DNA of 57,482 nucleotides, taken from Candidatus Poseidoniaceae archaeon. GTDB lineage: Archaea > Thermoplasmatota > Poseidoniia > Poseidoniales > Poseidoniaceae. The stretch spans positions 1 through 57,482 of the forward strand of contig JBMYNT010000004.1 of assembly GCA_049598575.1 (NCBI GenBank), in the 5' to 3' direction. The notes beneath the pieces are model-generated. The model ran no database searches. It was not told the DNA's origin and saw only the letters and a program-made list of their open reading frames with translations. Every line of letters starts with the position of its first letter. Positions within the stretch are counted from its first letter, which is position 1. Below, piece by piece: positions 16,293-57,482 of this stretch. The position numbers were made by a program, and so were the translations under genes.

Positions 16293-19200
16293 TCATTTGT
16301 ATTGCAAAATCTCTCCGTTGGCATCTTTGTACCACCAACTTCCATCTTGTTGATTCTGCCACCACCAAACGCCATCCGAGCCTTGGGTCCAACCATCGGC
16401 AGATGCGGTTTGTGTTGTTGCAGCAACCGGTTCAGATTCTTGAATCGGTTCACTCAAGTTGAGGTCAGCATCGCCCTCAATGTCTTCTTCTTCATCCTCA
16501 TCGAGATAATCCGAATATTCGTCCCATTCGTATTCCGATTTGGAACCACGCCGAACGGTTGCATTTCGAGCCATGAGCAAGAGAGCGAGAATGATCGAAA
16601 GGCCGAGCAATGCACCAATGGAACCGAGAATTGGGTTCACATCTCCAAACACAGCCTCGCTGAAGGAAGGGTCGCTCTTCGGTCGAACATCGACCGAAGG
16701 CCCGTTGCCTTTGACGCCATTTTCGAGCTGAACTTCAAGCCATTGCAGGCCCACCTGCTCAGGAGCCCAATCGATGAGTATGGTACCAAGACCGCCTTCT
16801 GCAACCTCGAGTTCGGTTTGACGGAGTACTTCCGACGTTCCATCAGCACGGACAACGGAAATCGTAGCATCTGTGGTTCCGTCCAATGTTCCAACGTTCT
16901 TGACGAAGATTTGCACAGCGGTCGAATCGCCTTGTTGGAGGTTCAAGCGTGAGTATTCCATGGCCGGAGTCTCCAGTTCAAACTTCGGCTGTCGCCATTC
17001 CATGAGCCATGACGTGACCGCATTGCCTGCAGATGAACCGGCTTCTCCAAGAACAAGATTGCCAGCAAGGTCTCGTCCTTCAACAAGAACGTAAACGGTA
17101 AAGCGATCGACCAACATATCGTCCGTGATGACGCTCAAATCCATCGTTCCTGTACCGATGAGACTCAATCCACTAATTTCTGTGCCTTGCAAGAGGAACG
17201 GACTGTCACCCTCCCGAATGAATTCACCTGTTTCGGTATTTTCGACCCACCACGCCAATCGTAAGGATTCAAAGTCAATTCCTCCTTCTTCGGAAAGGAC
17301 AATCGTGACTTCGTGTTCTTCAGCCGAAAGAATCGACCCTGGACGGGGTGTTTGCACCTCGACCGGTTGCGGGCCAAGCCCGTCAACAACCATCCACTTC
17401 ACAGAGGATTCTTTCTCGGTCGCATCGACGCCTTGAGGTGGCAAACAACCAACGGACCACGTCAATGGAATGGTTCCAGATGTTTGTGGTGAACGAAGTT
17501 CAACGTTCCAAATTCCATTGTAGGTGTCTGCCGAGTAGGTTTGACCGGCAAACATGACCTCTACACTGCAGTTGAAATCAGGTGTTTCTTCCGTTGCAGC
17601 AAACACCAATCCACCTGTCAATTCGAACGGCGAATTCGGTGGCAATCGGGCACCATCATCGAGAACAGTACCTTGTGTCAACACCAACGAAACAGATTCT
17701 TGAGGAATGGTCAATGCAGGTGAAAACCGCCACCGAAGTGCAGGGAACGTTTGGATGACTTCCTGTCCTGCACGATCGATGATTTTCACACTCGGCTCAC
17801 GGAAAGTATCACCAAGGTCAGGCGTGGTCCACGCCAATTCGAGGTCAACAACCAATCGGGTGTCTTTCTCGTAGGGTCCAGCGGTGGTACCATCGAGGGC
17901 AAGCATGGCACAATCGTTGACGATCAAATGGATGCTGTTTGATGTGCAGGAATCGGTTCTGAAATCCCACGTAAACGACAGAGGTGAGGTGAGGATGTTC
18001 GAAGCGAGCTGGATTTCAACCGTTGTAAAGTCCGAAGCACCGTTGGGTTCGCTCATGTCGACACGTAACGTGTAAGCCTGTTCAGGGTGCAACCACGGTT
18101 GTGCACCACCTGTCCATGACATAGCGTTCGAGGTCAAGGTTGGTGGCCCATCCGGTCCGATTTGATACATGAATAGGTGCTCGCCTTCTTCCCCAGTCCC
18201 TGCATCTTCGAGTGCTTGTCCCGATTCGTCCTCACCGACCAGATAGCCTGCGACCTTCTGGCCTTGCGAGCCCATGGAATCATCGAACAAGAGCGTGTAG
18301 ATTCCTGTTGAAAGGGTCAAATCCGTTGGGATAATGAGCGATCGTTGTTTGTATTCATCTGGACTTGGCCAGCCGTTCAAATCGACATCATCGGCCCATT
18401 GTCTCCACAGCATCACGTGGACATCGGATGGCAACAACACAGGGTCAAGAATCTGGAATTGAACGGTTTGACTGGTCGATGCGAGTCGATGATCGTACCA
18501 TGCAACCGTTGAATCGATGACGGCCGGGGCGGTTGGGTCGATCTTGAAGGTCCGAGTGTATTCAGAATCTCCAACAACATCTCCACCATTCAATGGAATC
18601 ACTCGAACGGTCCAGGTCAAATCGCCGAAGGAATATGGAGCCACATCGGAAACATTCCACATGTCGACATCGAGACTCGTGGTATTGGCGACCATGGTAT
18701 TTCCTTGCCACAACTGAACCTCAGCATCGCCGTCTGCAAAGGCATCGATACTCTCAACGCCTTCGTAACCGACATCAATCGTGAAATTCAGGCCCATGCC
18801 AGCTGCGAGGTACTCGGTGGACGAATCGATGATGCCATGATCGTCCATGATATCGACCGATTTGATGACCAAATCATTTTCAAACGCTTGGCCTCCTGTG
18901 AGCCCATTCCACATGTATTGACCTGGTCGTGAAATAACGCTGTTATCGAGAACAAGACGCATCGAAGCAGTAAGCCAGTTTTCATCGTCCCATCCTTGCT
19001 CAACGCGGAATTTCACGGTTATTTCACGCATTGTTGCCGATGTCTCTGAGATGCTGAACGCTTCGGTCGGATGCAATTCGATGAGATCACTGTCTGCTTG
19101 TCCGAGAGCAGTTCCTCCTCCAGTTGGCAACAACCACGTAGCATGATTGTTTTCTCCTTGGACATCAAGTCGAATCAACGAGATGGTACGTGCGGTATCG

Positions 19201-21371: not shown

Positions 21372-21467
21372 GCCTTTGCCTGATTTTCAAAGGACTTGAA
21401 TGTGTCAGTCCCAACGGCTGCTCTGATTGAGGGGAGAGATTGAAAACAAGGGGCCAATTCGCAAACC

Positions 21468-24743: not shown

Positions 24744-24752
24744 GGTCGAAGC

Positions 24753-25517: not shown

Positions 25518-25524
25518 CCAAGGC

Positions 25525-26928: not shown

Positions 26929-26978
26929 CGCCGATTGGAGGGTTATCCTCAAAAGCCCTTGACAAACGATGTTCCTTG

Positions 26979-28970: not shown

Positions 28971-28972
28971 AA

Positions 28973-30772: not shown

Positions 30773-30812
30773 TGTCCTTGCGTCACAAATCCGACATAAG
30801 ACGCTTTTCGCC

Positions 30813-31187: not shown

Positions 31188-31273
31188 AGTCAAGCCTCAC
31201 GCTCACAGTATAAGTGCCCATGCATTCCACCTAAGTCGTGAAGCGACGGATTGATGTGCTGTTAGGTCGAGCG

Positions 31274-40782: not shown

Positions 40783-40827
40783 GGCCATCGTCGCACCTTT
40801 GATGTGCAAGAACGTACAAGCACACAC

Positions 40828-43800: not shown

Positions 43801-44328
43801 GACAAAATTGGTAAACAAATCGAACATGTGTTCACCCGTGAAGGATCGTACACAATCCGAGTCATTGCATGGGATGAGAACCCAGAACGTCCCGGAACTC
43901 GTGTCATCAATGTCGAGATCGGGGCCCCAGAGCGTACCATCGTGGAGGAATTGGGGGCTGCATTCATCGGCGATGAAGCCAATCCTGTCGCTCAACTCTC
44001 ATTGCTCGCCTTCATGCTCCTTGCCCTCGGCATGATGACACGCCGTCGACGCTCTGGCAGACAGCAACGAGCTATGGATCGGCTTGACCAGCAGCAGAAC
44101 GCAATCTTCAGCGATGAGGAAGTCGGTCTGATGCCGCATGAAATCTCAGCACGTCGCAATCGACCACAAGATCCGCCTGTTGAACGGGCCTTTGATTCAG
44201 TCAGCGTGGCTCCTGCACCTACAACTGGACCCCCTCTTCCAGAAGGCGGATTGCCCGAGGGGTGGACAATGGAGCAGTGGGAGCATTATGGCCAACAATG
44301 GCTCGACTCGCAGGCTGACAATTCCTAA
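40828..44328 (+). CDS. Large single-TM surface protein with CARDB and multiple PKD-like domains; paralog 1
   Basis: Signal peptide; WRVGDKW N-terminal domain; repeated '[VT]DDDG' and 'DASGSFDEDG' PKD motifs; DxNxDG Ca-binding-like loops; TM followed by RRRR; GWTMEQW tail. Confidence 0.92.
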   Translation: MGGVLKSRVLTLLVLACMIGFSQIPLVEHNILSSGERVVQRSGSNPGVTDLPTWRVGDKWIYSGTFDPSILITDTGVSANVGEIRGDATAEVTDILELQFDNGTEWVYKLRMSADFDKSGVELEGFTGNAEIQFTQTEYLRVSDFATVKNDLDLYIKFIPYGIGSLTQILGDITITNEYSPATEAYDFPLRYGERWTSLTTASSQWSGQSDYITPFPPPETDTNTTTWEVTDVGQPRNAIGAGIAYSGCDASYELTSWNSDGVSTGYRWYCPAVNNYAWRHAEEDVGLTIDFRLKQYMPVGATGVESNSDPGTRPTCVDVDPERSLTALDSPLEVWVHLSPSCYGTIDGVGVEVAYDGASTTVYTASNGSASTTIDSGSSIDYSATNTDWSSHGIMAKSGSYVGAATITLDEYLVGLDLIADEERAVIIRNRSGVVSTVSSLSGYNVLPGDDLTIEVAVANKGITTSTATDLRIYHPDGSIFDLGLPPLATYESHKVNFTWTVPADAAIGTLPIRWESDPLQVNTADANADNDLGEIELFIGRLPTAVLEPIEVYTNVETVINASGSFDEDGGNVSCLFNVPWYDGTRSAAWTRVESMDCMLNWTWTNDGEYPVEVTITDEEQDQVEGILDVVILNRAPNIEVISARNEVKVEHPVTLYAYANDTDSEDPFPGIVDVYWPNAICEEGYYTRICTTTAPTEGWHTFQAVGVDDDSAMTMASIDIRFTNINPHGLSVTMTNDSGPLPLDVQQTWHVQEDQMVNLRGQALDSIDDLDGLTHRWWPDDAQPNLIKTFDGRVSEFEMMWETAGLHRMRLEVSDSEGASSGTYERWVSVANVPPVVQPLEQVLPLAEGEEVRLVGNATDTPSDYDTLIRCWDVDPGLDSNDIGGADDDCDVVGDELVWHWNTSGTHTVIYHVTDDDGVRVSEILSIEVLNIPPIVRTKDIACNALEACLLDASGTIDSINDLDQITVVWDLDTSVDSNGDGVKDNDADKIGKQIEHVFTREGSYTIRVIAWDENPERPGTRVINVEIGAPERTIVEELGAAFIGDEANPVAQLSLLAFMLLALGMMTRRRRSGRQQRAMDRLDQQQNAIFSDEEVGLMPHEISARRNRPQDPPVERAFDSVSVAPAPTTGPPLPEGGLPEGWTMEQWEHYGQQWLDSQADNS
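44227..44304 (+). repeat. Conserved cytoplasmic tail module, copy 1 (GPPLPEGGLPEGWTMEQWEHYGQQWL)
   Basis: 19 of 26 residues identical to the copy at 47752-47829, although the flanking tail sequences are unrelated. Confidence 0.9.
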
Positions 44329-44352
44329 GTACAAGGAAGCAGACATTAAGGT

Positions 44353-47300
44353 ATGGCGAACCGCTTTCTGACTTTACTTGTTTTGTTCCTTTTGGCAGGT
44401 TCATCGAGTGTGCACTTTGTCAACAACGACGCAACGACACTTGATGTGCAACCATCTGTTGAACTATCTTCTGGCACAACAAGCTCCACAGATGTTCCAA
44501 GTTGGCGCATCGGTGACAAGTGGACCTATGAGACGCAATTTGATGTCTCTCAACTGCTAGCACAAGCCAACGTATCTGCAAGCCTCAATACACTCACCGG
44601 AGATACTGTTTACGAGATTGATGACATCTTTTTCATCAATGTTGACGGCATCCAAACGCTTGCATACAAGATGCTCATTGAGGGAGAATTCTCATCCGGA
44701 AACAGTGGCGCTACACTCGAAGGCGTTTCTGGAAGGCTCGACATCGATTATTCTGGCGAAGACATCGTACGAGTTCGAGATCTCGCAGTCATCAACTCGG
44801 AATTTGAGTTGGACGTCAACTTTGCACCATTCAATCTTGGCTTCTTATCGCAAAATTTGGCTACCATATCCTTTGACACCTATTACGACCCTCCAAAAGA
44901 AAAATACGATTTTCCAATGAGGACTGGCGATCAATGGTACATGCCATTCATGTCCGGTACGAGCGTAAGCGGTTCATCTGATTACTTTGATCCGACCGAG
45001 TTTGACACACAAGGAGCTGAAAATACCTCCTGGCAGGTCACCAAGGATGGAATTCCAACGGAAGATGGTCAAAACATCAAGTACGAAGGATGCGATGATT
45101 CGTACAAAATCAACGAATGGAACGCAACAGGCGTCAGTGCTGGATTTAATTGGTATTGTCCTGCTGTTCGATTCAACTCTTGGATTCGAATCTCAAACGC
45201 TGCTGGTTTCACCATTGATTGGCTCTTGAAAGACTACGAACCCGTTGATTCGTTTGGCGTTGACAAAAGAAAAAATCCAGGTGATCGGAATGTCGACATC
45301 GAGGTTGAGACACAATTTATTGCCACACTACCAGACTCAGAATCAAAGATATACGCAACCTACTCGGTAGCTCCAAACGGCATACCAGAGGTCAACAAAA
45401 ACCTCCAGTTGCGTTACGAAATGGCGGGAACGCTGATCAATCCAATTACAAACAGCAGTGGTATGATTGAAGAGGCAATCAACGTTTCAAATGTCGTGGA
45501 TGACACCATCGCTAGCGATGATTTTAGCAGCAACGGCGTGATTGTCTGGGATCCAGTTCAGGAAATTATTGGCGTTGCCACGGTTGTCATCGACTTGTCT
45601 GTTGTTGGCATCGATTTGGTTGCTCAAGAAGACTCAATCATCGTTACACGAACCCGCGATGGCGAGGTTGCGACCCTGTCAAAATCCATTGGTTACAACG
45701 CCTTGCCAGGTGACGAACTCTCCTTCTCTCTACCAGCCCAAAACAGAGGTGTTTTGCCATCTCCTTCAACAGAAATGGAAATTATTGTTCCTGATGGCGA
45801 TTCGAGCCGACAGGCTGTTCCATCCATCGAGGCGTACAGTGAACAACGTATCGTGATCGACTGGATTGTTCCTGAAAATTCCACCATCGGTAACCAGACA
45901 TTAACCTTCACCGTTGATCCGGATGAGCTCATCACCGGGGACGCCAATCGAAGCAACAACCAAGCTACTGTGGATGTCTTCATCGGCCGTGCACCGAACG
46001 CATCGATCACCATCGATACTGGGAACTATACGTTCGAGGACGTCTTCATTGATGCAAGTTCTTCCTTTGACCCTGATGGTGGGGACGTCGAGTGCAGGTT
46101 TGAAATTGAATCACGTCCAGGTCTTGTCGATGTCATTACAACGCCAGATTGTGCCATCAGTTGGAACTGGTCTGACGATGGTGACTGGGAATTGCGAACC
46201 ATTGTAACCGACAATGAACTTGATTCAACTGTTTTGACCAGCAATGTCACCATCCTGAATCGAGCACCATACATCAACCTCAGCCACCCAACGGAAATTG
46301 CTGTCGAATCTTCCATCACCATCGATGCCAGTGATAGCGGTGATATCGACACTGTATCTCCATCGGGCCAGCAAGTCAGTGTTTCTTGGCCAGATTTGAA
46401 CTGTCTCGAAGGATTAACACAACCGACGTGTACCTTTACACCACTTGAAGAGGGAACGATGCCGATCCGTGCAATTGCAACCGACGATGATGGCGAAGAA
46501 ACCGAAGTGATTTCATCGATTGAAGTTCTGAATGTCGCCCCAAGCATTGGTGAAATTGACGTTTGGATTGCAGGCGTAAACACACCATTCGATGCGAATG
46601 GAACATGGGTACTCCAAGAGGATCAAACCGTCATTCTACGTGCTCAAGGGGATGACACAATCAACGACCGTGATGGACTCATCATCAACTGGAACCTAAG
46701 CGATGTTCTTGACAATCTCACAGTCTCCACCGATGGCTCAGCCTCGGATGTTGCAACGTCATGGCCAACGTCTGGAGAACACATCATCTCAGTTCGCGCT
46801 GTTGATGACAACGGAGCAACTTCTTCCACATCGCTCGCAAAGGTCACGATTGTCAACGTACCTCCAACCATGACAGCAGAGGCGAATTTCCTCAACGCTG
46901 TCAACAACGGCCTCACGGTTTCTGAAGACGACAAGGTGGTCTTTGACGTCATTGTCGACGATACGGCATCTGACAAGGACTCACTGGAAGTCTGTTGGGA
47001 TATTGATGGAACACGTGATGCGGACCTCGATGGTACCCTGAACAATGACTGTGATGTGAGTGGAACGCATTTTGAGTACACATGGGAAACCAGCAACCCT
47101 CAGTTTCGAACCGTCACAGCATGGGTGAAGGACGATGATGGCGCCATGGCTTCAATTTCGGCTGTTGTCAAGGTTCAGAACGTCCTACCAGGCGCAGAGA
47201 TTTCGTTCGCCAATGGATCACTTGACAACCTCGTGAAGGGCGATACGCTCAACCTCACATCCGATGGAACGACCGATTCAGATTCGGATAAATTGAACAT

Positions 47301-47937
47301 GCTCTATGTGTGGAAATTTGAATGGCGAGGAGAGAGTGATTTGGGGGAATCAGGTCCAACAGTATCCATTACAGATCTGCCAGTCGGCACATGGGACATC
47401 AACCTCACCGTTACGGACGATGACCTTGCATCATCGACCAAGACCATCACCATCATTGTCGCTGAACCACCGCCCGAAGGATTCCTCGAAGAGTTCAGTG
47501 ATACACTGGGTGTATCTCAAACCATGTCAATTGTCATTCTAGGACTCGTTGGTTTAGTGATCATGTTGGCATCGTTCCTGCTCATCACTCGACGATCACC
47601 ACCAGATTTGGTCGAAACACCATCAAACAAAGCATGGGATACAACACCGTTGCCAAGTTATGCGCCCTCTGAGTTGCCTGCATACGAGCAACCAGCGCCA
47701 CAAGCGCCTGTTCAATCAGAGCCGTTTGTTGAACAGCCAGTCGTCAATCAAGGCCCTCCTCTTCCAGCCACCGGCTTACCGGCTGGTTGGACCATGGAAC
47801 AATGGGCGTATTATGGTGAACAATATCTGGCAGCAAATCAAGCACCTGCACCTACCTATCAACCGACACCTTCAATGACTTCACCATCAACTCAGAATAC
47901 GAATCTCTCCGACCTCTTGGATGATTTGGACCTGTGA
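44353..47937 (+). CDS. Large single-TM surface protein with CARDB and multiple PKD-like domains; paralog 2
   Basis: Same architecture as paralog 1 (WRIGDKW, WYCPAV, PKD units, TM, GWTMEQW tail). Confidence 0.92.
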   Translation: MANRFLTLLVLFLLAGSSSVHFVNNDATTLDVQPSVELSSGTTSSTDVPSWRIGDKWTYETQFDVSQLLAQANVSASLNTLTGDTVYEIDDIFFINVDGIQTLAYKMLIEGEFSSGNSGATLEGVSGRLDIDYSGEDIVRVRDLAVINSEFELDVNFAPFNLGFLSQNLATISFDTYYDPPKEKYDFPMRTGDQWYMPFMSGTSVSGSSDYFDPTEFDTQGAENTSWQVTKDGIPTEDGQNIKYEGCDDSYKINEWNATGVSAGFNWYCPAVRFNSWIRISNAAGFTIDWLLKDYEPVDSFGVDKRKNPGDRNVDIEVETQFIATLPDSESKIYATYSVAPNGIPEVNKNLQLRYEMAGTLINPITNSSGMIEEAINVSNVVDDTIASDDFSSNGVIVWDPVQEIIGVATVVIDLSVVGIDLVAQEDSIIVTRTRDGEVATLSKSIGYNALPGDELSFSLPAQNRGVLPSPSTEMEIIVPDGDSSRQAVPSIEAYSEQRIVIDWIVPENSTIGNQTLTFTVDPDELITGDANRSNNQATVDVFIGRAPNASITIDTGNYTFEDVFIDASSSFDPDGGDVECRFEIESRPGLVDVITTPDCAISWNWSDDGDWELRTIVTDNELDSTVLTSNVTILNRAPYINLSHPTEIAVESSITIDASDSGDIDTVSPSGQQVSVSWPDLNCLEGLTQPTCTFTPLEEGTMPIRAIATDDDGEETEVISSIEVLNVAPSIGEIDVWIAGVNTPFDANGTWVLQEDQTVILRAQGDDTINDRDGLIINWNLSDVLDNLTVSTDGSASDVATSWPTSGEHIISVRAVDDNGATSSTSLAKVTIVNVPPTMTAEANFLNAVNNGLTVSEDDKVVFDVIVDDTASDKDSLEVCWDIDGTRDADLDGTLNNDCDVSGTHFEYTWETSNPQFRTVTAWVKDDDGAMASISAVVKVQNVLPGAEISFANGSLDNLVKGDTLNLTSDGTTDSDSDKLNMLYVWKFEWRGESDLGESGPTVSITDLPVGTWDINLTVTDDDLASSTKTITIIVAEPPPEGFLEEFSDTLGVSQTMSIVILGLVGLVIMLASFLLITRRSPPDLVETPSNKAWDTTPLPSYAPSELPAYEQPAPQAPVQSEPFVEQPVVNQGPPLPATGLPAGWTMEQWAYYGEQYLAANQAPAPTYQPTPSMTSPSTQNTNLSDLLDDLDL
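47752..47829 (+). repeat. Conserved cytoplasmic tail module, copy 2 (GPPLPATGLPAGWTMEQWAYYGEQYL)
   Basis: Direct comparison with copy 1. Confidence 0.9.
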
Positions 47938-48494
47938 TGACGATGGGAAATCTTTGGCAATTCTTTGGACTCCCAGACCCAGATGCAGGTGGTGTGGCTC
48001 GAGTTGCAGAAGCACCTGCTCCTACGCAAAATAGGCAATTATCGAACGAACCTGTTGCAGTCGAAACGCAAACTGTCGAAGAGGCACCTACATCTCAAAT
48101 CGACGGAAACATCACCTTCGAATGGAATGGACCAGTGACCCCAGACGGAGAACCGTTTCATGATCTCTCACAACATGGAGGACGGGTTTTGACTCGACCA
48201 ACACGAGCACTGCGTTACGTTAAGCCGGATGAAAAGCATCGTATCCACACGCGAGACATCGCACAACGAGTGATTCAAGGAGATACTGTGATTGTCGATC
48301 TACGAACATTGGTCCATATGGAATCGCACCAACAGGCTTGTCGACGAGAATTACGAGTCATGTGTGAACAAGTAGGTGTTGGCGTTTTTGCACTAGATTC
48401 TGAGGATAAGTTATTGATGATTCCAGGAGCAGATGTCGTTGTTGATATTGAAAAGCACGAGCTGGGACTTACGCGTCTGCTACGCGTATCCTGA
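47937..48494 (+). CDS. sepF: Cell division protein SepF-like
   Basis: N-terminal amphipathic MGNLWQFFGL; C-terminal 'DIAQRVIQGDTVIVDLRTL...RRELR.MCEQVG..VFAL..KLLMIPG..V.V' matches the SepF core pattern. ATG overlaps the upstream TGA. Confidence 0.72.
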   Translation: MTMGNLWQFFGLPDPDAGGVARVAEAPAPTQNRQLSNEPVAVETQTVEEAPTSQIDGNITFEWNGPVTPDGEPFHDLSQHGGRVLTRPTRALRYVKPDEKHRIHTRDIAQRVIQGDTVIVDLRTLVHMESHQQACRRELRVMCEQVGVGVFALDSEDKLLMIPGADVVVDIEKHELGLTRLLRVS

Positions 48495-48503
48495 GGTGAA
48501 ATA

Positions 48504-49790
48504 ATGGACAGGCGTCAGCAATTCGCAGGTTCATATCTTGAACTGTTTACATCATCGATGCTGTTCTTCATCGCCTTGACATTCCTTCTGGCGTGGTTAA
48601 CATTTTTTTCTCCTTACGAATTGTTCGAGAACACGGATCGTCTTGAAGTCATGAACTTTGTTCTCATTACGCTTTTCGCATTGGGGCCTGTCATGGCAAT
48701 TCTTGCAGGTATTGCGTTTGATACGTTGCCACTTGTGTACAATGTCCCATCCTTTGAACGGACCACAATGCGTCACTTTTTGCAACTCAACGCTCTTGGG
48801 CAATTGTTTGTTCATGTTGGCATCTACATTGGCAATTGGAATTTGTTCATTGAATTCTCAGGAATTGGGATCGTTTTGATGTGCCTTGCTTTACTCACGC
48901 TCACGCCATCATCGATCGATATTGTCAAACAGAAAAGCAACTCTGGAGAGGTTGGAATCTTCTCGTACTCGCCAGGATTGGTCCTTGTATTCTGCTCGTT
49001 GTTCATCGTTGCTTCATGGTTTATGCGTGAGATTGATGGTATGATTCAAGTTGGTATCGCGTTCATTGTAGGGATTTTCTGCATGATGATGATGTCGACA
49101 GTCATGCTCTCGCATTTCAATCGAAGACTGGGCTGGAATACAACAAACCCGAAAACTCTGCCCGTTCGATTCCTCATCCTCATTCTCCTTGGAATTGGCT
49201 ACGTCGTGGCGAGTTTTCTACGTGCGAGGGATTCGATATCAGAGGATGTCATCGATATCGGTTTTGCAATTCTTCTCTTGAACGTATTTTTCATTATGAA
49301 TCCGCTGAAGGTTTTACGGTTCTCCATCGGCAAATTTGCAAAGCCGCATTCTCGATTTGTGTTCATAGGGTATTTCCTGTTACCTCTGCTCTCACTCGTT
49401 TCAATCGCACCTATTTGGACAGGCCATGAAGGCATAGCGAACATTCAGCCTTCGCATTGGTTGTTGATTGCCTATTCATGTTTCTTCGTCGTGTGCGGGT
49501 TCGCTATTTTCCTTCACGAAGATCATTTGCATTATTCTCCTTCAACACGGATAACGCATTGGCACCTGGTGTTGATGTTCCTTGCTTGTGGTGTTCTCAT
49601 GACATGGTCACTCTACGATGGTGCCGTACTCTTGGATGGAGAATACTTACCAGTGTACATTTGGATTGGAACACAAAGTGTTGCATCCTTCTTGCTCGGG
49701 ATTTTGTTCATTCGACACACTGTTTTCCCATCGGACAACTGGCACCGAATGCCGATGTTTTACGACCGACTCATGGAAAGCAATGATTGA
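48504..49790 (+). CDS. Polytopic membrane protein (~11-12 TM), function unknown
   Basis: 428-aa ORF that is almost entirely hydrophobic; GAGGTG SD overlaps the sepF stop. Confidence 0.85.
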   Translation: MDRRQQFAGSYLELFTSSMLFFIALTFLLAWLTFFSPYELFENTDRLEVMNFVLITLFALGPVMAILAGIAFDTLPLVYNVPSFERTTMRHFLQLNALGQLFVHVGIYIGNWNLFIEFSGIGIVLMCLALLTLTPSSIDIVKQKSNSGEVGIFSYSPGLVLVFCSLFIVASWFMREIDGMIQVGIAFIVGIFCMMMMSTVMLSHFNRRLGWNTTNPKTLPVRFLILILLGIGYVVASFLRARDSISEDVIDIGFAILLLNVFFIMNPLKVLRFSIGKFAKPHSRFVFIGYFLLPLLSLVSIAPIWTGHEGIANIQPSHWLLIAYSCFFVVCGFAIFLHEDHLHYSPSTRITHWHLVLMFLACGVLMTWSLYDGAVLLDGEYLPVYIWIGTQSVASFLLGILFIRHTVFPSDNWHRMPMFYDRLMESND

Positions 49791-50344
49791 ACGTCGTCCA
49801 GCAAGTCAAGAGAAGACTGAGTAAATCCTAGCACTGTCGGTTCTGTGCCCTCAATCAGTTGAGCGTACTTCCCCATCATACCAGCCAAATCATAGCCACC
49901 AGCTTTACCGACCCAAGAGTCTGACTCGATAAGTTCGACCAGTGCATCATCGGAGAAATCCTCGATTTCAACAACAGCGTGTTCGACGCTTGAATGCCAG
50001 TTCTCCATGGCATGCACCATCGTTGCGGACCACACACGGTGACGGCGCCCACGCAAGCGGATTAGCATAGCAACAGCTTGTTCCTTCGAGGCTGGTTTTC
50101 CAAGTGCGGCTTGTTCGTCATCGGGATCTTCAACAAGCGTATCTGAAACGATCACGACATCGAACTCATCCTTGAACACGACAGCCTCTGCTTTCCGAGA
50201 GGCAACTTCTTTCACTTGATTGGAAAGAACTTGGCGAGGTACAGATTCATCTACGCCTTTGAGTGCAACTTGTTCGACGTTTGCAAAGCGCTGCCGAAGA
50301 ATGGTGCCTCGACGTTCAGATGCAGAAGCCAACAGGATGCGCAT
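49760..50344 (-). CDS. maf: Maf-family nucleoside triphosphate pyrophosphatase
   Basis: ILLASASERR; VDE; VSDT.V; LGKP; GRRH.V.S; KAGGY. Confidence 0.92.
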   Translation of the reverse strand: MRILLASASERRGTILRQRFANVEQVALKGVDESVPRQVLSNQVKEVASRKAEAVVFKDEFDVVIVSDTLVEDPDDEQAALGKPASKEQAVAMLIRLRGRRHRVWSATMVHAMENWHSSVEHAVVEIEDFSDDALVELIESDSWVGKAGGYDLAGMMGKYAQLIEGTEPTVLGFTQSSLDLLDDVQSLLSMSRS

Positions 50345-50441
50345 AAGCAGAACACGTCACATCAACCACATCAGATTTTGCAAACAAAACGGGGGTGAAT
50401 TTCAAGTGTTGAATCGTGTTGCTTCAAAGTGAGGCGGCACT

Positions 50442-51161
50442 ATGGACATCATGGAACGAATTCCCACACACGTTGAAGGACTCGATGAGAACATGCAAGG
50501 TGGAATTCCGAAGGGACACATCTGCATCGTTGCAGGTGCATCTGGTGCCATGAAATCGAGTGTCACCTTCTCAATGCTCTACAATGCTGTGTTGTATGGC
50601 GAAACGAGTGGGATTTACGTCACGCTCGAACAAGGAAAGGATTCCTTGCGAGCGCACATGTCCAACATGGGTATGAACGTAGACGACCCTCGTGTTCGAA
50701 ATCGAATTGCTATCATCGATCTTTCTGACCTTCGTGTCCAACTTGACGAACAAGGCATGAGTAACCGTGTTGATTGGATGGGTCAATTGATTAAGCAACT
50801 CACAAATTACAGAAAGTCCATCGGTTTTGAACTGCTCGTCTTCGACTCGCTTGGTGCGTTCTTCACGCTCACCAAGATGGAAAATCCTCGCGATGAAATT
50901 TTCAGACTCTTTGAAGCGGTTCGCCGTCTTGAACTGACCTCGTTCTTCATCTGTGAAATGACCGGAGAAAATCACAGACAATTTGGAGAATATGGCGTCG
51001 AGGACTATCTTTCAGACGGAGTTATTCATCTCGTAATGGATCGAAAAGAAGACGATGTTCAACGAAAACTCGGCATCATCAAGATGCGTCACACACGACA
51101 TGCATTGGGTTACAAACCATTCAATTGGAAGCAAGAAGAACAACGCTTCACAGTTCTTTGA
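50442..51161 (+). CDS. Single-domain KaiC/RAD55-like RecA-superfamily ATPase
   Basis: RIPTHVEGLDENMQGGIP; Walker A variant GASGAMKS; YVTLEQ; Walker B LLVFDSL; DGVIHL; IIKMR. Confidence 0.9.
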   Translation: MDIMERIPTHVEGLDENMQGGIPKGHICIVAGASGAMKSSVTFSMLYNAVLYGETSGIYVTLEQGKDSLRAHMSNMGMNVDDPRVRNRIAIIDLSDLRVQLDEQGMSNRVDWMGQLIKQLTNYRKSIGFELLVFDSLGAFFTLTKMENPRDEIFRLFEAVRRLELTSFFICEMTGENHRQFGEYGVEDYLSDGVIHLVMDRKEDDVQRKLGIIKMRHTRHALGYKPFNWKQEEQRFTVL

Positions 51162-52979
51162 TCATTCAACCGTCACAGATTTCGCAAGGTTGCGAGGACG
51201 GTCCACATCGTTATCGAGAGCGAGAGCTGCATGATAGGCAATCAGTTGCGTCGGTAGGACGGTCAACAATGGTGTCAGCATTGGAATCGTTGATGGAATA
51301 GGAATGCTCACGTCCGCAGTTTCAGAGATAGGATCTCCTTCTTCATGAATCAGGATGATTTTTGCACCCCGTGCTTTGCACTCATGGATTGCATTCAGAG
51401 TTCGATCCTGAACGCCATCGTTTGGAGCGATAACAACAACAGGTGAATTCTCTTCAATCAATGCGATTGGCCCATGCTTCATTTCACCTGCGGGATAGGC
51501 AAGGCACGGAATGTACGCAATCTCCATCAGTTTGAGAGCCCCTTCAGATGCAACTGGGGAAGAAATGCCTCTTCCCAAAAACAGAACACTTTTCGCCTTC
51601 GTAACCAACTCAACAGCTTGTTCAATTGGTCCAGGCTGTTCGAGGTAGGTTCGTATCTTTTCTGGGAGAGTACGCATTTCTCGAATGATTGATTTTCCCT
51701 TGGTCTTTGAAAGATGACGGCTTCGACCGAGTTGTAGAGCGAACAAGGCAAGGGCTCCGACCATGTTCGTGAAGGCCTTTGTTGAAGCAACGGATTGTTC
51801 AGGTCCAGAGTGGATGTAGACGCCCTTTCCGCATTGCCTTGCAATACTCGAACCGACAACGTTCACGACGCCATAGACATCGGCCCCCTTTCGTTGAATT
51901 TCCTTGACCGCTGAGAGCGTGTCGGCTGTTTCTCCTGATTGAGATATCGCCAAATGGAGCGCTTTTGGATTGATGACTGGGTCGTTGGCATTGAATTCGC
52001 TTGCAACATGAGAAACTGCAGGGATTCGCGCCCACTGTTCGATCAGAATTTGACCAATCTGAGCAGCATGCAAAGCCGTACCACATCCAATCAAACGGAC
52101 GTGAGGGAGTTGTGCGAGTTCCTGAGGTTGTACCTGCAGACCACCTAGTACCGATGTCCCTTCGGCATGACGTAATCGACCGGAAATACAATGCTGCAAA
52201 GACTGAGATTGTTCATGAATTTCCTTGAGCATAAAGTGAGGATATTCTCCTAATTCGCTTTCACCCCATTCTTCTTCCAACTGAAGAAGGTGAGATTCAA
52301 CCTCTTGGCCATCCGTTTGCATGACTTGGAAATCATGTGCATCAAGCTTTGCAATTTGTCCATCTTCAAGTGCAACAAGTTGATCGGTATGCTCTCGAAT
52401 TGCATGAGGGTCACTTGAAATGAACATCTCGTCCTTTCCTCGGCCAATGATGAGAGGTGACCCATTCCGAGCGCAGAGCACATAGTCGTAATCTTGGAAC
52501 AGGACACAAACGCCCCACGTCCCTCTGGCCATCGAGAGAACACTCTGAAGTGCTTCAAGCGGCTCTTTACCTTCTTCGAGAGCCATCGCAATGTAGTGAC
52601 AAAACACTTCAGAATCGGTTTCCGAGTTGAGTCGAACGCCTGCTCGCTTGAGACGCTTACGAAGAGCATCAGAATTCTGTAAAATGCCATTGTGTACGAT
52701 TGCAACCTTCCCATCATTGCTGAGATGAGGGTGAGCATTTTCTTTGGTAACTCCTCCGTGTGTTGCCCAGCGTGTGTGAGCAATGCCCATCGAGCCTTTG
52801 ATCTCAGGCAACGATGTAGCCATCTCGGAAATTTTCCCGATGTCCTTGTAGGATTGCAATTGCCCATTCTTGACAACCACACCACTCGAGTCATAGCCTC
52901 GATATTCAAGACGTAACAATCCTTTGACGAGCAAGGATGAAGCATTACGGTGACCGATGTAGCCAAAGATTCCACACAT
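51162..52979 (-). CDS. glmS: Glutamine--fructose-6-phosphate transaminase (isomerizing)
   Basis: MCGI start; LEYRGYDS; HTRWATHG; HNG; ISQSGETADT; VASTKAF; EMKHGP; RPRNLAKSVTVE. Confidence 0.98.
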   Translation of the reverse strand: MCGIFGYIGHRNASSLLVKGLLRLEYRGYDSSGVVVKNGQLQSYKDIGKISEMATSLPEIKGSMGIAHTRWATHGGVTKENAHPHLSNDGKVAIVHNGILQNSDALRKRLKRAGVRLNSETDSEVFCHYIAMALEEGKEPLEALQSVLSMARGTWGVCVLFQDYDYVLCARNGSPLIIGRGKDEMFISSDPHAIREHTDQLVALEDGQIAKLDAHDFQVMQTDGQEVESHLLQLEEEWGESELGEYPHFMLKEIHEQSQSLQHCISGRLRHAEGTSVLGGLQVQPQELAQLPHVRLIGCGTALHAAQIGQILIEQWARIPAVSHVASEFNANDPVINPKALHLAISQSGETADTLSAVKEIQRKGADVYGVVNVVGSSIARQCGKGVYIHSGPEQSVASTKAFTNMVGALALFALQLGRSRHLSKTKGKSIIREMRTLPEKIRTYLEQPGPIEQAVELVTKAKSVLFLGRGISSPVASEGALKLMEIAYIPCLAYPAGEMKHGPIALIEENSPVVVIAPNDGVQDRTLNAIHECKARGAKIILIHEEGDPISETADVSIPIPSTIPMLTPLLTVLPTQLIAYHAALALDNDVDRPRNLAKSVTVE

Positions 52980-52988
52980 AGTACCACT

Positions 52989-55900
52989 TCAAAGATTGAA
53001 TCTTCCTGAACAAATTGGACACGTTACTTGAGCTCGCATCAAATCGGTTACCGGGAAATTAGCGCTGCATGAAGGGCACACAGCTTGACGACGAAGAGGA
53101 GGCAAATCTGCTAACGGCGGTAGCGCACCTGGTTCGAGTTCGGCTACAGGCAGAGGAGGTAGTGCTTCTGCAACAGGTACATCTGGCAACGGCGTTGGAA
53201 GCGGTAACGGAGGCAATCCTTTGGAGACAATCTCTGCAATCTCACGATCTTGTTTCCTCTTCATACGACGATTCAAGCGAGCATTTCCTTCGCCAGCAAT
53301 GCTCTTTGCTTGAAGTTCGTCAGCGAGCGTGGGCTCTTCCATTTCGACCTGTATCGGTGGAGTAATTGGAACAGTTGCAACCAATTCTTCATCGTCTTTA
53401 TCCTCTTCAACTTGAACGAGGATGGCAACTTCGTCTTCCTCTACAATAGCAGCATCGACGACATCTTCCTTTCTACCTGAACGAAGAGAAATGACGACGA
53501 GAACAAACAGAAGAAACAGTACTGATACAACACCGAACAAAATTCTCATCTTCATTTCATCCGAACCAGGGAGTGGTTCCAACAGCTGCTCAAGTAACGA
53601 CTTCGGTTCGCTCGACTCTTGTGGTGAATCCATCAAGAATTTCTGCATTGAGAAACGACCTGTTGGAGAAACAGTGAACAAGATCGCATCCTGATTGTTC
53701 ATGCTGTAGCCAAGCAAACTCTTCTTTTCTGAAACAATGTTCGATAATCCAACGACTGGAACGTCGCCTGAGGGCGTATCCCTCGTGGTCAGGAGACCGT
53801 AACGTGACACTTCACCAAGGACGGTGATCTCGTTGTATACGACTTCAACAACATCTTGGCGTTGATTGAAAATGAGTGTAGTAGAACCTGGCGCAGGAGT
53901 AATGACTGGTTCCTCGCTCCAATCGCCTTCAGTTGCAAGAACAGCAATGTTCGCGTCTTTACCAGAGCCTTCAATCCATCCTGCGAAGAAGAACTTGTTT
54001 TCATCGATGGAAAGAATTCCAAGTTGTGCGGAGTGAGCCTCATCACCGATGGATGCTTGATAGTCCCACTGTGTCGCATAAAGGTCACCCCGTGTGTACA
54101 TCAGACCGGTTCGCTCAACTCCAGTCACATCATCACGGAGTTCTTGGAAAAGAATGTGCAAGACACCTTCATCGAGCAAGGTTGCGAGTTGGTCACCATC
54201 ATCCGGATGAATATCGATAACGGGTACATGCGTCTTCATGTTCGTCCAATTCTCGCCAACATCTGGTGTTGATGAATGGATGCTGAAGATTGATGTGAGA
54301 TCTGACCAGGAGCCACCAGTTGAGAGGTTCCTGAAGTATCCTGAAAGAACGACCGTTTCGTCTTCTTGGGCCAAATCGAGACCCCAATATTGACCCTCTG
54401 AAATTTTCAGAGGCGTGAGATGATGGTGAACAGGCAACATTTGGCCTGTCGCTGAAAATGAAGTCATAGCAATATCGTTGAGGAAGTAACCTTGCTGCGA
54501 TTGCGTTCGGCTCGTCCAAACAGCATGGACAAGACCATCCTCACGAACCATGACATCGATTTCTCCACCCCAGTTTGTATCAACGACTGTGTCTGTTAAT
54601 AGCTGGAGATCTTTGCTGATCGAACGAACATGAAGCTCACCGTCAATGGTTGTAAACAGAAGTGTTGACGATTCGATACCTGCAAACGCAACCGGGTACT
54701 CTGAATCGGAAAGGGAGAGGGTCGAGCTTCCTTGGCCTGAGGCGACATCACTGACAACCACTGTAAACGTGTGTTGACTGTATTCGCTCTCAACACCATC
54801 ACCGGTGAGTGTGGCCTTGTACAGAACTGCTCCAACCTGGTCATTCATGTGTCGGAACTTGACCACTTGGTATCCCGATTCAGTGGTCGCGCCCGGGATG
54901 AAACTCACTCGTTCTTCGTCAATGCTTTGCCAACCTGCATCTGGAACCCAATATTCCAGCACCATATCCAAGGATACTGCATTTGATTGACCAAGGTTGT
55001 CCACTCGTATGTTTATTTGGTAATCCTCATCAGCAAGGGGGATGTTAGGGATTGTTGTTACCGAACCTGGAAGGAATCGGAGAACGGGTTGATTTGGACG
55101 TTCAAGAATCTCGAATGGGAAGGAGAGAGTGTTGTCATCTGGCTCCAAATCGCCTTGGACATTGTTTGGGTCGAGTTCAAGCAACACATCATGCAAACCA
55201 GCAATACTTGCCTGCCAGTACAACGTAACGGAAACAGATTCCCCTTTCTCCAAGGATGGGATAAGACCTTGCGAAGGGTAGACCTCAGAATTCTCGCCCG
55301 GTGCAGTGAGTCGAACAAAAATGTCCGTAGCGTCTTTGTCACCAGCATTGTAGACATCAAACTTGACTTCGAGTAAACTTCCCGCATAGGCTGTTTCTGC
55401 TGGCAACTTCTGGTCAAAAATCTCGACTTCTCCTTGGAAACGCAATGAAGGAGCCGGTTCGATATTGTCAATCGTGTAACTTCTGGATGCGATAGGGCTG
55501 ATGTATCCAGTCTTGTTGACCATTCGAATGAAGAACTCACGATATCCATCATCGGCTTCCGTTGAATCCCAATTGAACGACCATGAATCGCTACCGTCCT
55601 GACCTGGGCCATCGTATTTCGTCAACGTCGTGCCTGTCTTCCAGTCGCCATCATCAATTTTGTACTCGATTCGATCGTGTTCCACACCTGCAACATCACC
55701 TGTTATCTCAACCAACCCAGACAGTACGTTACGCGCAATAGGCGTTTCAAGCGTCAAGCTCGTTCTCGATAATTGGAAATATCGTACTGCAGTAGTGGAT
55801 TCATTCTTTTCTGCGTCCTTCGCCACAGCATAAACATAAATTTCTTGGTCATCCGACGCAATCCATGAGTCTTTCAACTCCAGATCGTAAAACCAGTAAT

Positions 55901-57482
55901 CGGTTGAGCCGTTGACAACTGTCCAGTCGAGGAGCGTTCGAGGTGGTTTGTCGTTCTTACCGTCTCTATTTGCGTCACGGAAAGTGAAGTTCTGTACGAT
56001 TTTTATCTCAACCCGGTCGTAAGCAACCTCAGTTGTGTTGACATCTCCTGAGATACGAGTGATGGATTCCGACATGACCCATGTACCATTGACAGGGAAT
56101 GAAATGTTAACATCGCTTGTGCTTGCCCGAAGACCATTATCACAAATTTGACCTTTCGCAAAAGCGATGGCACAAGATGCATCGATGATTCCATGTCCAA
56201 AGGTCTCGTTCCATCGCGATATCGAGTCGTCGGCTGGTTCTCCCCTTGCTTCAGAAGATTTCTGAATAATGTCCTTGACTTCTTCTGGTGTAAGAGACGG
56301 GTCGGCTTCCAAGAGGAGCGCAATTACACCTGAGGCAATCGGTGTTGCCATGCTCGTACCAGATTTTGAGTCGTATTGGTCGTCGGCAAGCGTTGCAGGT
56401 GTACCAGGCAATCCAAACGATGCGGCATGGGTCGCAGAGGTAATGTTCGAACCGTAGGAGGTTACATCCGGCTTTTGCTCATCGGTATCATCATCATCGT
56501 TGTCAGACAGTCTCGGACCATAGTTCGAGAAATCCGACATGTTATCATCGGTTCGAAGAACAGTGTTTCGGTCATCTACGGAGCCAACGGTTATTGCACC
56601 GTCTGCACTGCCTGGCGAAGGAACTCGGTTTGTTCCATCGTTTCCAATAGCGACGACACAGACAATGCCCGCTGCTGTTGCTTGATTGACAAGATTCGCT
56701 TCTGCACTTGATCCATTGTCACCTGGGTCATTTGGCAAAAGTGGCCCCCCACCAAGCGATCCGTACGACATAGATGCGATTTGAATCCCGGTATACGTTG
56801 AGTTCACACCCCAGTCAGTGTTGACGTTGTTGATCATCCACTGAAGCCCACGGAGGCTGAACTGTGAGTTTGTACCACCGCCGTCTGTCAAGACCTTGAT
56901 GTCGATGAGCCCTGCACCCGGTGCAGTCCCCATGTGAATCTTTGAGGCATCACCCGTACCAAGGGCAGAACCAGCAACGTGGGTACCGTGACCATTACCA
57001 TCATCAGGGTCAGTCGCTCCTGATTCATCTGGCGTCTGGGCTGTCGCGTCGTACCCAGCGATCCATTTTCTATCAGAGTAAGAATTTGGGTCTGCGTCTG
57101 GAGCGTCATCAACATCATCGAAGTCGTTGAGTGAGCGATGCTCATTGTCCACGCCAGTGTCAAGCACTGCGATGATCACACCTGTACCGGTGTAGCCTTG
57201 TTCATGCGCAGTGTTGGAATAATCATCCGATGGGCGGGCTATTGCTGCCCTTGATGCAACATCATTGCTCGGCACCATGACGTTCTGCATCTCGACGACA
57301 ACAACGCCGTTGAGTTGGTAAATGTCCATCAATGCAGAAACAGGTACCTTGTCGACGGCAATGGCATCGATGCTGCGGATTGTTTCAAAGAAAGCACCTT
57401 GCTCTTGTCCGACCCATCCATGGCGCTCAAGCGTTGAGCGAAGGTTGTCCTCTTCCACATCGGTTGGATTCCATGCGTAGTC
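52989..57482 (-). CDS. Membrane-anchored S8 (subtilisin-like) serine protease with Ig/CARDB stalk, TM, Pro-rich linker and C-terminal Zn ribbon; 5' end beyond the window
   Basis: Catalytic VLDTGVD, GHGTHVAG and SGTSMATP; the frame stays open to 57482 (DYAWNPTD before the track start); TM ILFGVVSVLFLLFVLVVISL; CPSC...CPIC. Confidence 0.94.
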   Translation of the reverse strand, partial: DYAWNPTDVEEDNLRSTLERHGWVGQEQGAFFETIRSIDAIAVDKVPVSALMDIYQLNGVVVVEMQNVMVPSNDVASRAAIARPSDDYSNTAHEQGYTGTGVIIAVLDTGVDNEHRSLNDFDDVDDAPDADPNSYSDRKWIAGYDATAQTPDESGATDPDDGNGHGTHVAGSALGTGDASKIHMGTAPGAGLIDIKVLTDGGGTNSQFSLRGLQWMINNVNTDWGVNSTYTGIQIASMSYGSLGGGPLLPNDPGDNGSSAEANLVNQATAAGIVCVVAIGNDGTNRVPSPGSADGAITVGSVDDRNTVLRTDDNMSDFSNYGPRLSDNDDDDTDEQKPDVTSYGSNITSATHAASFGLPGTPATLADDQYDSKSGTSMATPIASGVIALLLEADPSLTPEEVKDIIQKSSEARGEPADDSISRWNETFGHGIIDASCAIAFAKGQICDNGLRASTSDVNISFPVNGTWVMSESITRISGDVNTTEVAYDRVEIKIVQNFTFRDANRDGKNDKPPRTLLDWTVVNGSTDYWFYDLELKDSWIASDDQEIYVYAVAKDAEKNESTTAVRYFQLSRTSLTLETPIARNVLSGLVEITGDVAGVEHDRIEYKIDDGDWKTGTTLTKYDGPGQDGSDSWSFNWDSTEADDGYREFFIRMVNKTGYISPIASRSYTIDNIEPAPSLRFQGEVEIFDQKLPAETAYAGSLLEVKFDVYNAGDKDATDIFVRLTAPGENSEVYPSQGLIPSLEKGESVSVTLYWQASIAGLHDVLLELDPNNVQGDLEPDDNTLSFPFEILERPNQPVLRFLPGSVTTIPNIPLADEDYQINIRVDNLGQSNAVSLDMVLEYWVPDAGWQSIDEERVSFIPGATTESGYQVVKFRHMNDQVGAVLYKATLTGDGVESEYSQHTFTVVVSDVASGQGSSTLSLSDSEYPVAFAGIESSTLLFTTIDGELHVRSISKDLQLLTDTVVDTNWGGEIDVMVREDGLVHAVWTSRTQSQQGYFLNDIAMTSFSATGQMLPVHHHLTPLKISEGQYWGLDLAQEDETVVLSGYFRNLSTGGSWSDLTSIFSIHSSTPDVGENWTNMKTHVPVIDIHPDDGDQLATLLDEGVLHILFQELRDDVTGVERTGLMYTRGDLYATQWDYQASIGDEAHSAQLGILSIDENKFFFAGWIEGSGKDANIAVLATEGDWSEEPVITPAPGSTTLIFNQRQDVVEVVYNEITVLGEVSRYGLLTTRDTPSGDVPVVGLSNIVSEKKSLLGYSMNNQDAILFTVSPTGRFSMQKFLMDSPQESSEPKSLLEQLLEPLPGSDEMKMRILFGVVSVLFLLFVLVVISLRSGRKEDVVDAAIVEEDEVAILVQVEEDKDDEELVATVPITPPIQVEMEEPTLADELQAKSIAGEGNARLNRRMKRKQDREIAEIVSKGLPPLPLPTPLPDVPVAEALPPLPVAELEPGALPPLADLPPLRRQAVCPSCSANFPVTDLMRAQVTCPICSGRFNL

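Follow-up and report, generated by a model that had tools for sequence, protein, structure and literature searches.

Conserved terminal modules on the predicted cytoplasmic tails of surface proteins in a Poseidoniaceae archaeon

The window analysed here is the whole stretch of 57,482 bp from Candidatus Poseidoniaceae archaeon (order Poseidoniales, Marine Group II, Thermoplasmatota; GenBank assembly GCA_049598575.1, contig JBMYNT010000004.1), which constitutes contig C4 of a genome of 1.84 Mb in 110 contigs and about 90% completeness. Five of its genes (P0001 to P0005) encode large surface proteins that are held by a single C-terminal transmembrane (TM) helix and continue behind it into a tail predicted to lie in the cytoplasm. 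The tails exhibit a common build plan and no common motif: K/R residues acting as stop-transfer signal are followed by a variable, disordered, acidic or Pro-rich spacer and by conserved terminal modules, of which each tail possesses one or two. The modules are short and under strong purifying selection; the spacers vary in length and sequence. In an all-against-all comparison of the tails, the ends fall into at least four classes without detectable similarity to one another. The shared design is real and lineage-specific, a principle with several independent caps and not one demonstrated network.

The five proteins and the topology of their tails

P0001 (16293-21371, minus strand) encodes a type-I protein of 1692 aa with a signal peptide, a TM helix at 16569-16631 and a tail of 91 aa (16296-16568); the sole Pfam match of its ectodomain is a weak one to the Reelin-subrepeat. 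P0002 (31238-33799, plus strand; 853 aa) is an exoenzyme with lamin-tail and amidohydrolase domains, a TM helix at 33608-33664 and a tail of only 44 aa (33665-33796). P0003 (40804-44328, plus strand; 1174 aa; TM helix 43987-44040; tail 44041-44325, 95 aa) is followed by its tandem paralogue P0004 (44353-47937, plus strand; 1194 aa; TM helix 47524-47589; tail 47590-47934, 115 aa), both with PKD and CARDB domains and with 34% identity over the ectodomain. P0005 (52989-57482, minus strand; TM helix 53484-53543; tail 52992-53483, 164 aa) is a surface protease of the S8 subtilase type (Peptidase_S8 and CARDB), the orthologues of which measure 1620-1700 aa. A signal-like hydrophobic segment is situated at the N-terminus of four of the five proteins, the 5' end of P0005 being lost at the contig end. 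In all five, K/R residues stand directly behind the TM helix. The proteins, together with the tail ends quoted for them in a first-pass annotation of this DNA, were thus all found again.

Genes and TM helices were called genome-wide with crude scripts of our own, no trained predictor being used. Among the 127 type-I-like proteins obtained in this way, the 12 residues before the TM helix contain on average 0.71 K+R, whereas the 12 residues after it contain 2.31. Because of this positive-inside bias, the extracellular type of the ectodomains and the presence of a four-Cys ribbon on the tail of P0005, the tails of all five proteins are predicted to face the cytoplasm, as the first-pass annotation had assumed. 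Long tails are not peculiar to the window: in 76 of the 127 proteins (60%) the TM helix is followed by 40 or more residues, and in 52 by 80 or more.

A lack of conservation between orthologues, which would have spoken against the proposal of the same annotation, was not seen: in the orthologue sets of P0001, P0002, P0004 and P0005 conservation was found, those of P0001, P0004 and P0005 exhibiting kept ends behind variable spacers. Pfam contains none of the modules, and a description of the tails was not found in the literature searched. Of the undescribed shared design that had been proposed, the conserved modules stand; a single network is not supported, since the ends can be sorted into no fewer than four classes that are unrelated to one another.

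The general arrangement recalls the sorting signals PGF-CTERM/archaeosortase, LPXTG/sortase and GlyGly-CTERM, in which one C-terminal element is likewise found on many unrelated surface proteins of one lineage. There are, however, fundamental differences: in those signals a motif precedes the TM helix, only a few basic residues follow it up to the C-terminus, and cleavage takes place on the outer face, whereas here 44-164 residues follow the TM helix and the common element is predicted to be cytoplasmic. A signal of the PGF-CTERM type was rejected, as the residues preceding the TM helices (FGDVNP, SLIGP, IGDEAN, EMKMR) contain no PGF-type motif and the tails are of the length mentioned. A closer analogy in design is offered by integrin beta and cadherin tails, with a large ectodomain, one TM helix and a short cytoplasmic tail, where the same motif occurs on unrelated receptors and recruits intracellular adaptors; a sequence relationship does not exist, however, and this archaeon has no known adaptor machinery.

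The class A module of P0003 and P0004

Class A is the dominant cluster in the unbiased all-against-all comparison of tails. It comprises a module of 27 aa with the consensus PPLPxxGLPxGWTMEQWxxYGxQ[WY]L, represented in the window by GPPLPEGGLPEGWTMEQWEHYGQQWLD of P0003 (44227-44307, plus strand), for which a Pro-rich stretch and a helix are predicted, and by GPPLPATGLPAGWTMEQWAYYGEQYLA of P0004 (47752-47832, plus strand), which is subterminal. Genome-wide, nine large ORFs carry the motif PPLPxxGLPxGW[TS]M[ED]QWxxYGxx[YW]L C-terminally; besides P0003 and P0004, it caps seven further ectodomains, six of which show no BLAST similarity to that pair. Full-length paralogy is confined to P0003 and P0004 according to BLAST, and two others have one domain of around 180 aa in common; for the remaining pairs among the nine, BLAST similarity was not found. 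Their Pfam content differs in kind (PKD/CARDB, NEW3, WD40-like propeller, NHL/TSP3, or none). A region-restricted search yielded 79 proteins with a class A end, and in relatives the carriers include 1099-aa proteins without Pfam domain, WD40-like propellers and S8 peptidases of 1623 aa. Unrelated surface proteins have class A in common, and the same holds for class B (see below), both restricted to the Poseidoniales.

Within 22 diverse copies, nine columns of the module are invariant (P14, G17, L18, P19, G21, W22, Q26, W27 and G31 of the alignment) and six more are at least 90% identical. A profile search among 1.84 billion cluster representatives gave 640 matches at E ≤ 0.001, 423 of them at E ≤ 1e-10. 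The module is present in 64 of 64 Poseidoniales genomes vs 0 of 237 other Thermoplasmatota, a sample that includes the sister order of the same class; Poseidoniaceae possess 7-11 copies per genome, the second family of the order (in all counts taken to be the Thalassarchaeaceae) 1-7. Class A is a portable, lineage-specific module of the Poseidoniales.

The spacers are truly of low complexity, and a juxtamembrane acidic-aromatic motif common to the tails, which was tried as a further shared element, proved marginal (8 observed vs 3.2 +/- 1.5 in shuffled sequences, maximum 9), such that a chance or compositional artefact of the tails had to be considered for the modules as well. For the classes A, B and C it is refuted, and we regard it as practically excluded overall: of 41 related genomes, 39 contain the class A coding pattern, with 1-6 matches per genome, whereas the reversed control gave 0; E-values reach down to 1e-20 per genome, in addition to the 423 representatives mentioned above; and at conserved residues the copies use different synonymous codons. 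Between P0003 and P0004, 19 of the 27 module residues are identical, 11 of these via different synonymous codons, and the remaining residues of the two tails (64 and 56, respectively) cannot be aligned.

Concerning its position, the module lies within the last 28 residues in 122 of the 149 best-scoring representatives, whereas in P0004 and in the other 27 of the 149 it is situated 30-90 residues before the C-terminus. The distance between TM helix and module varies about three-fold among the carriers. These data bear on the possibility that the tails are signals of biogenesis or turnover, i.e., a force-sensitive translation-arrest or insertion-timing peptide, or a tag for a protease or quality-control factor. 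The predominantly near-terminal position, with class A confined to the last 16-22 residues in these 122 representatives, would suit such a signal, as would the composition of the module, which is rich in Trp and Pro like the arrest peptides SecM and TnaC. Furthermore, a tail of at least 40 aa lets the anchor exit the ribosome before termination, and a separate C-terminal EEE tag is enriched proteome-wide (see below). A reader of terminal tags fits poorly with the subterminal modules of P0004 and the 27 representatives, however, and the three-fold variation of the spacers argues against a tuned pulling-force device; moreover, the modules are predicted to fold. We consider this explanation highly improbable.

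Structure was predicted with AlphaFold2 for two 40-residue models (class A and the Trp module of P0001), followed by Foldseek, and is read here from pLDDT and predicted secondary structure and not from coordinates. In the class A model, residues 11-34 reach a pLDDT of 85-90; residues 24-40 form a helix, no strand is present, and the segment PPLP..GLPxGW is confident and non-helical. The model suggests a Pro-rich stretch that would be packed against the aromatic face of the helix. In this respect it resembles the PP-fold (pancreatic polypeptide/NPY) and the Trp-cage, which combine a polyproline stretch, a turn and an aromatic-faced helix; the aromatic residues of class A stand at helix positions i, i+3, i+7 and i+8 behind a T-x-x-E capping box. 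Packing of this type would explain the confident non-helical PPLP segment, although the analogy is drawn from sequence pattern and pLDDT and implies no homology. Foldseek found no match to the model, and when eight tails (P0001, P0003 and P0005 among them) were searched by themselves against Pfam at E ≤ 10, no family matched those of class A. A profile search of the PDB with class A gave no significant match, the nearest being 9 residues (GLPEGWEM) of the Itch WW domain with E 0.35. Other helical tail ends in the genome (PxW[SD]xEE..Y..GW) resemble class A, and Pfam at E ≤ 10 matched nothing in these, either.

Several unrelated, uniformly small and probably stable modules at the same position might also be self-contained, serving together with the charged spacers as stoppers or interface anchors that hold giant ectodomains in a wall-less cell, with no partner involved. 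The preference of Trp and Tyr for the membrane interface and the long charged tails on 60% of the type-I-like proteins are consistent with this explanation. The modules are situated, however, at the far end of variable spacers of 40-130 aa and thus away from the membrane, and the class A helix is only weakly amphipathic: with a moment (muH) of 0.19-0.33 and a mean hydrophobicity of about -0.15 to 0.10, it was rejected as a membrane-seeking amphipathic helix. In addition, 15 of the roughly 27 positions of the module, polar ones included, are near-invariant across the order, which is more than fold stability alone needs. Anchors of this kind are unlikely.

Some further motifs accompany class A. 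Between anchor and module, the motif LPxxDxxANSMYGGxxx[LI]FQQP is found in seemingly unrelated ectodomain families (for example C12:5141-8656, minus strand; P0054, P0056 and P0072), and a similar sequence, TATYGAVAAAP, in another family.

Trp, zinc-ribbon and acidic tail ends

The tail of P0001 begins with a juxtamembrane motif, RNATVRRGSKSEYEWDEYSDYLDEDE (16482-16568, minus strand), and ends in a Trp module, DGWTQGSDGVWWWQNQQDGSWWYKDANGEILQYK (16296-16397, minus strand), which defines class B. Both are almost unchanged among 49 orthologues, in which the Thr/Ala/Ser-rich spacer between them varies. AlphaFold2 predicts a five-strand beta-meander for the module (pLDDT 87). The best Foldseek match is non-significant (E 0.15); the top 50 are beta-meanders, including polo-box PB3 and TCP10c/G-box, with no WW domain among them. 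Pfam at E ≤ 10 matched no family on class B tails, and in PDB profile searches with Trp modules no match was significant, the nearest being beta-hairpin repeats of glucansucrase and designed propeller blades.

At least a dozen other tails terminate in a looser Trp pattern, DxxGxxW..G..W[WF]Y[RD]......W. An HMM built from such ends detects 14 places in the genome, all of them C-terminal, among them one on a soluble protein of 246 aa and one on a protein of 289 aa. In the sample used for this class (16 Poseidoniaceae, nine genomes of the second family and around 126 other Thermoplasmatota), it was found in 16 of 16 Poseidoniaceae, in 4 of 9 Thalassarchaeaceae and in none of the others. The remaining five Thalassarchaeaceae genomes possess class A, and class B is not detectable in them.

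Two groups of class B carriers are noted in their own right. One is a soluble, highly acidic protein of 246 aa without predicted TM helix (C43:1525-2265, minus strand), which starts with MAKKRGGFGRFLGAL and has a class B module at its C-terminus; many genomes of both Poseidoniales families contain ORFs of 243-280 aa with such an end, and the protein may be an adaptor. The other consists of C10:7074-10262 (plus strand; 1062 aa) and C10:46472-47341 (minus strand; 289 aa), which have a post-TM domain of around 170 aa in common (NELxKEExNELTYLQSxVQxY...). It ends in a class B module and looks like a larger conserved cytoplasmic tail domain.

Both class A and class B invite comparison with the WW domain (PF00397). 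Class A opens with GLPxGW, the canonical WW start, and the Trp modules, like it, are aromatic antiparallel beta-sheets of about the same small size. A WW domain is, however, a three-stranded antiparallel sheet with two signature Trp around 20-22 residues apart, which neither class A nor the P0001 module is predicted to be: class A is otherwise predicted to be helical, and the Trp modules have 4-5 strands. Classification of either as WW domain was rejected, as no Pfam WW match at E ≤ 10 was obtained and PDB profile searches started from the Trp modules brought up no WW chain at E ≤ 10.

The first-pass annotation had brought the PPLP motifs of the tails into connection with the ligands of eukaryotic WW domains. 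Developed further, this would give a network from tail to tail, in which the Trp modules bind the PPLP or LPPLP of other tails in the manner of WW, SH3 or G-box domains and thereby tie the surface proteins together beneath the membrane. Enrichment on tails and restriction to the Poseidoniales do indeed apply to PPLP-type motifs and to aromatic beta-sheet modules alike, a conserved soluble protein of around 245-280 aa also bears the Trp module, and among the Foldseek neighbours is 4by2, a single-layer beta-sheet that binds a proline-rich peptide, with an E-value of only 1.7. The Trp modules fail every WW test, however, and the PPLP of class A is probably no free ligand, since it is predicted with a pLDDT of 85-90 as part of the module. 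Class A is also present without detectable class B in five of the nine Thalassarchaeaceae genomes, which makes an obligatory role of the Trp modules in reading the class A PPLP unlikely. The WW pairing did not hold up, and a network of this kind is quite unlikely.

Class C is represented by P0005. Its tail exhibits the same order of elements in both families: an acidic VELMIxPEDDxGPLL, the basic GEGNARL[NE]RRMKRKQQRE, LPPLP-type repeats, and CPxCxAxFxVKDMxLxxxxCPICS. In the window (minus strand throughout), the basic motif GEGNARLNRRMKRKQDRE is situated at 53241-53294 and is conserved across the order; the proline repeats (53094-53219) keep their composition, their number and sequence being variable; and the terminal four-Cys element CPSCSANFPVTDLMRAQVTCPICS (CPSC-x17-CPIC), a putative zinc ribbon, occupies 53007-53078. 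The four Cys are kept in 20 orthologues. MJ0042-type zinc ribbons (Zn_ribbon_4/5, PF13717/PF13719) exhibit the same CPxC-x17-CPxC pattern, although the P0005 ribbon reaches only 14.8 bits against these families (cut-off 30.3). Zinc-ribbon ends are found on four other tails of the genome, and on the Cys tails Pfam at E ≤ 10 matched zinc-ribbon families only; the tail of C73 passes the Zn_ribbon_5 model with 36.1 bits vs a cut-off of 29.3. Different from the known ribbons is the architecture, i.e., a ribbon behind a basic helix and LPPLP repeats on the tail of a surface protease, which has not been described. The second giant S8 protease of the genome (C70) carries a class A end instead of class C; since the same enzyme class thus occurs with different caps, the tails are modular.

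The SAP motif (PF02037), a DNA-binding helix-extended-helix motif, stands beside the class A module on the tails of propeller-type surface proteins in some Poseidoniales (P0075, P0080 and P0260). Together with the basic helix and the zinc ribbon of P0005, it hints that some tails may contact nucleic acid.

The short tail of P0002 (class D) contains IIESQWEDE, FVPELPPLTPPP and a terminal EEE (33710-33796, plus strand; from FVPELPPLTPPP to EEE, 33746-33796). Poseidoniaceae orthologues keep IEKMWDE, F[VI]PxxPP[LMI]xPP and an acidic end of EEE type. In the Thalassarchaeaceae, one orthologue stops four residues past its TM helix (SRRT), and the short tail of an orthologue from a third family is unrelated; judging from these orthologues, the class D tail is an addition at family level, confined to the Poseidoniaceae.

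P0002 ends in SSEEE (33782-33796). Genome-wide, 53 of 1519 complete ORF products end in -EEE vs 0.47 expected from the frequency of Glu, the next commonest ends being ESE (11) and DEE (7). Soluble and membrane proteins alike bear this end. An artefact of ribosome-binding sites is improbable as its cause, given that the genes differ in the codons used and in their stop codons and that the majority lack a gene start close behind them. Other tail types outside the window comprise DUF4129 (PF13559), found on the tails of C25:17467-25428 (minus strand; 2653 aa) and C9:46477-51531 (minus strand; 1684 aa) with 27.1 and 36.7 bits, respectively, vs a cut-off of 24.8, and the tail of a 1517-aa surface protein (C2:60887-65440, minus strand), which contains two copies of QGY[PD]EETA.AYAAQY with a sub-threshold match to UBA (20.5 bits vs a cut-off of 22.4).

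A SepF-like neighbour and the possible role of the tails

The tail of P0004 possesses a second terminal peptide behind its class A module, LSDLLDDLDL-COOH (47905-47934, plus strand). In P0004 orthologues from four Poseidoniaceae genera, LLDD[LF][DE][LFI]-COOH is invariant and follows a variable spacer of 25-60 aa, and most of the extended class A tails worldwide end in an LLDDLDL-like peptide or in GGLDFDL. Other proteins of the genome exhibit similar ends (IDTSFLDDLL, FDSMLDDL, LPNLDDLF).

The start of the next gene, P0283 (47934-48494, plus strand; 186 aa), overlaps the stop codon of P0004. P0283 is single-copy in 60 of 61 Poseidoniales genomes and lies directly downstream of the P0004 orthologue in all Poseidoniaceae listing both (at least 15 genomes from four genera), whereas the two are unlinked in the Thalassarchaeaceae. 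The orthologues consist of an invariant N-terminus (MxNLWQFFGLPDP), a variable linker and a conserved C-terminal core, which corresponds to the layout of SepF, a single-copy protein of FtsZ-bearing archaea with N-terminal amphipathic membrane helix, linker and core; the helix of P0283 is putative, its amphipathic character having been judged by eye. The SepF model PF04472 matched nothing in this genome at E ≤ 1, P0283 included, and P0283 gave no match to solved SepF structures by phmmer or PDB profile search. In the Thermoplasmatota, 58 of 81 genomes score above the PF04472 cut-off, with exactly one match in most other genomes, and no other SepF candidate was found with this model in the Poseidoniaceae sampled. 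A weak PF04472 match (E 0.0056) lies inside the G026 homologue of P0283, and hhalign of P0283 against SepF from five Thermoplasmatota matches 102 columns in colinear order (P 4.9e-4, at a probability of 32%). Homologues are named 'SepF-like' in one source. From this evidence, P0283 is quite probably a divergent SepF that PF04472 misses in the Poseidoniaceae.

P0283 is a candidate partner of the P0004 tail, and for such binding a precedent is available: in Methanobrevibacter smithii, the segment LDDFI of the FtsZ tail fills a groove of SepF (PMC8178401), by analogy to which LLDDLDL would be a reasonable candidate SepF ligand. The FtsZ tail, which docks on SepF, FtsA or ZipA (archaeal case: PMC8178401), is also similar to the tails described here in its general organization, with a short conserved end behind a disordered spacer that varies; the carriers here, however, are type-I surface proteins and not a cytoskeletal polymer. 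FtsZ1 and FtsZ2 of this genome end in TIEFVN and VDIHRFD. These ends are not LDDF-like and thus give no sign that LLDDLDL imitates the local FtsZ tail, a reading that was rejected within this genome.

It is conceivable that the LLDDLDL end of P0004 and similar ends of other surface proteins bind P0283 by imitating an FtsZ C-terminal peptide and tie the surface-protein pair to the division machinery. The overlap of the two genes and their adjacency in at least 15 genomes, the single-copy state of P0283 in the absence of another PF04472 match in Poseidoniaceae, the evidence from G026, hhalign and naming, the precedent of M. smithii (PMC8178401), and the similar ends on other proteins here and on extended class A tails worldwide are all consistent with this docking. 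On the other hand, P0283 fails the Pfam model and the PDB searches, its hhalign probability is only 32%, the genes are unlinked in the Thalassarchaeaceae, the local FtsZ ends differ, and the other four tails are not covered, P0004 alone being accounted for. We regard it as doubtful, though it is the likeliest of the alternatives considered and the most concrete of the more specific hypotheses. Still more tentative is a wider version, in which portable caps (class A, the Trp meander and the FtsZ-imitating LLDDLDL ends) would link many unrelated surface enzymes and adhesins of the wall-less Poseidoniales, which rank among the most abundant planktonic archaea, to interior scaffolds, at least one of the links running via P0283; such an inside-out coupling is improbable, and if true it would be a prokaryotic counterpart of the coupling of integrins and cadherins from the surface to the cytoskeleton, or to the divisome.

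P0003, P0004, P0283, a polytopic membrane protein (48504-49790), a KaiC-like ATPase (50442-51161), GlmS (51162-52979) and P0005 form a block (40804-57482) that appears syntenic across Poseidoniaceae genera, as judged by where P0005, P0283 and class A matches fall.

For the tails in general, the reading to which we incline, if by a small margin over even chances, is that they are tethered docking handles for intracellular partners. Each terminal module would be held out on its flexible tether and recognised by one or more partners in the cytoplasm or at the inner face of the membrane. Unrelated exoenzymes and adhesins with the same cap would thereby be plugged into the same intracellular element, and positioning, clustering, retention or coupling of the surface proteins would be the outcome.

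Several points weigh against the docking handles. No partner was found, and no proteome-wide search for one (by phylogenetic profile or multimer prediction) was made. The class A genes are scattered, and the only conserved operon neighbour is the SepF-like gene beside P0004, in Poseidoniaceae only. TM helices and topology derive from a hydropathy script and the positive-inside rule, and as evidence of structure a high pLDDT counts for little when the peptide has 40 residues and the alignment is shallow. A self-contained role, for instance in fold stability, in binding to the membrane interface or as a biogenesis signal, would likewise be compatible with the strong conservation. Finally, the five tails possess no single module in common, and one system for all of them is therefore not supported. 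Since no partner has been identified, the localising, coupling or signalling role that had been ascribed to the tails is one that we infer.

Marine Group II archaea are uncultured and constitute a large share of the archaeal plankton of the surface ocean, and a lifestyle of degrading particles and proteins is attributed to their giant surface proteases and adhesins. If the modules have no partners, they are still lineage markers and a warning against reading GLPxGW or PPLP as WW biology. As order-specific caps, they can be synthesised as short baits of 27, 34 and 7 residues for sub-membrane partners of an uncultured cell. If such partners exist, at least two new mini-domain families would be defined, and the tails would represent a rare prokaryotic case of adaptor-style coupling of surface proteins to the cell interior.

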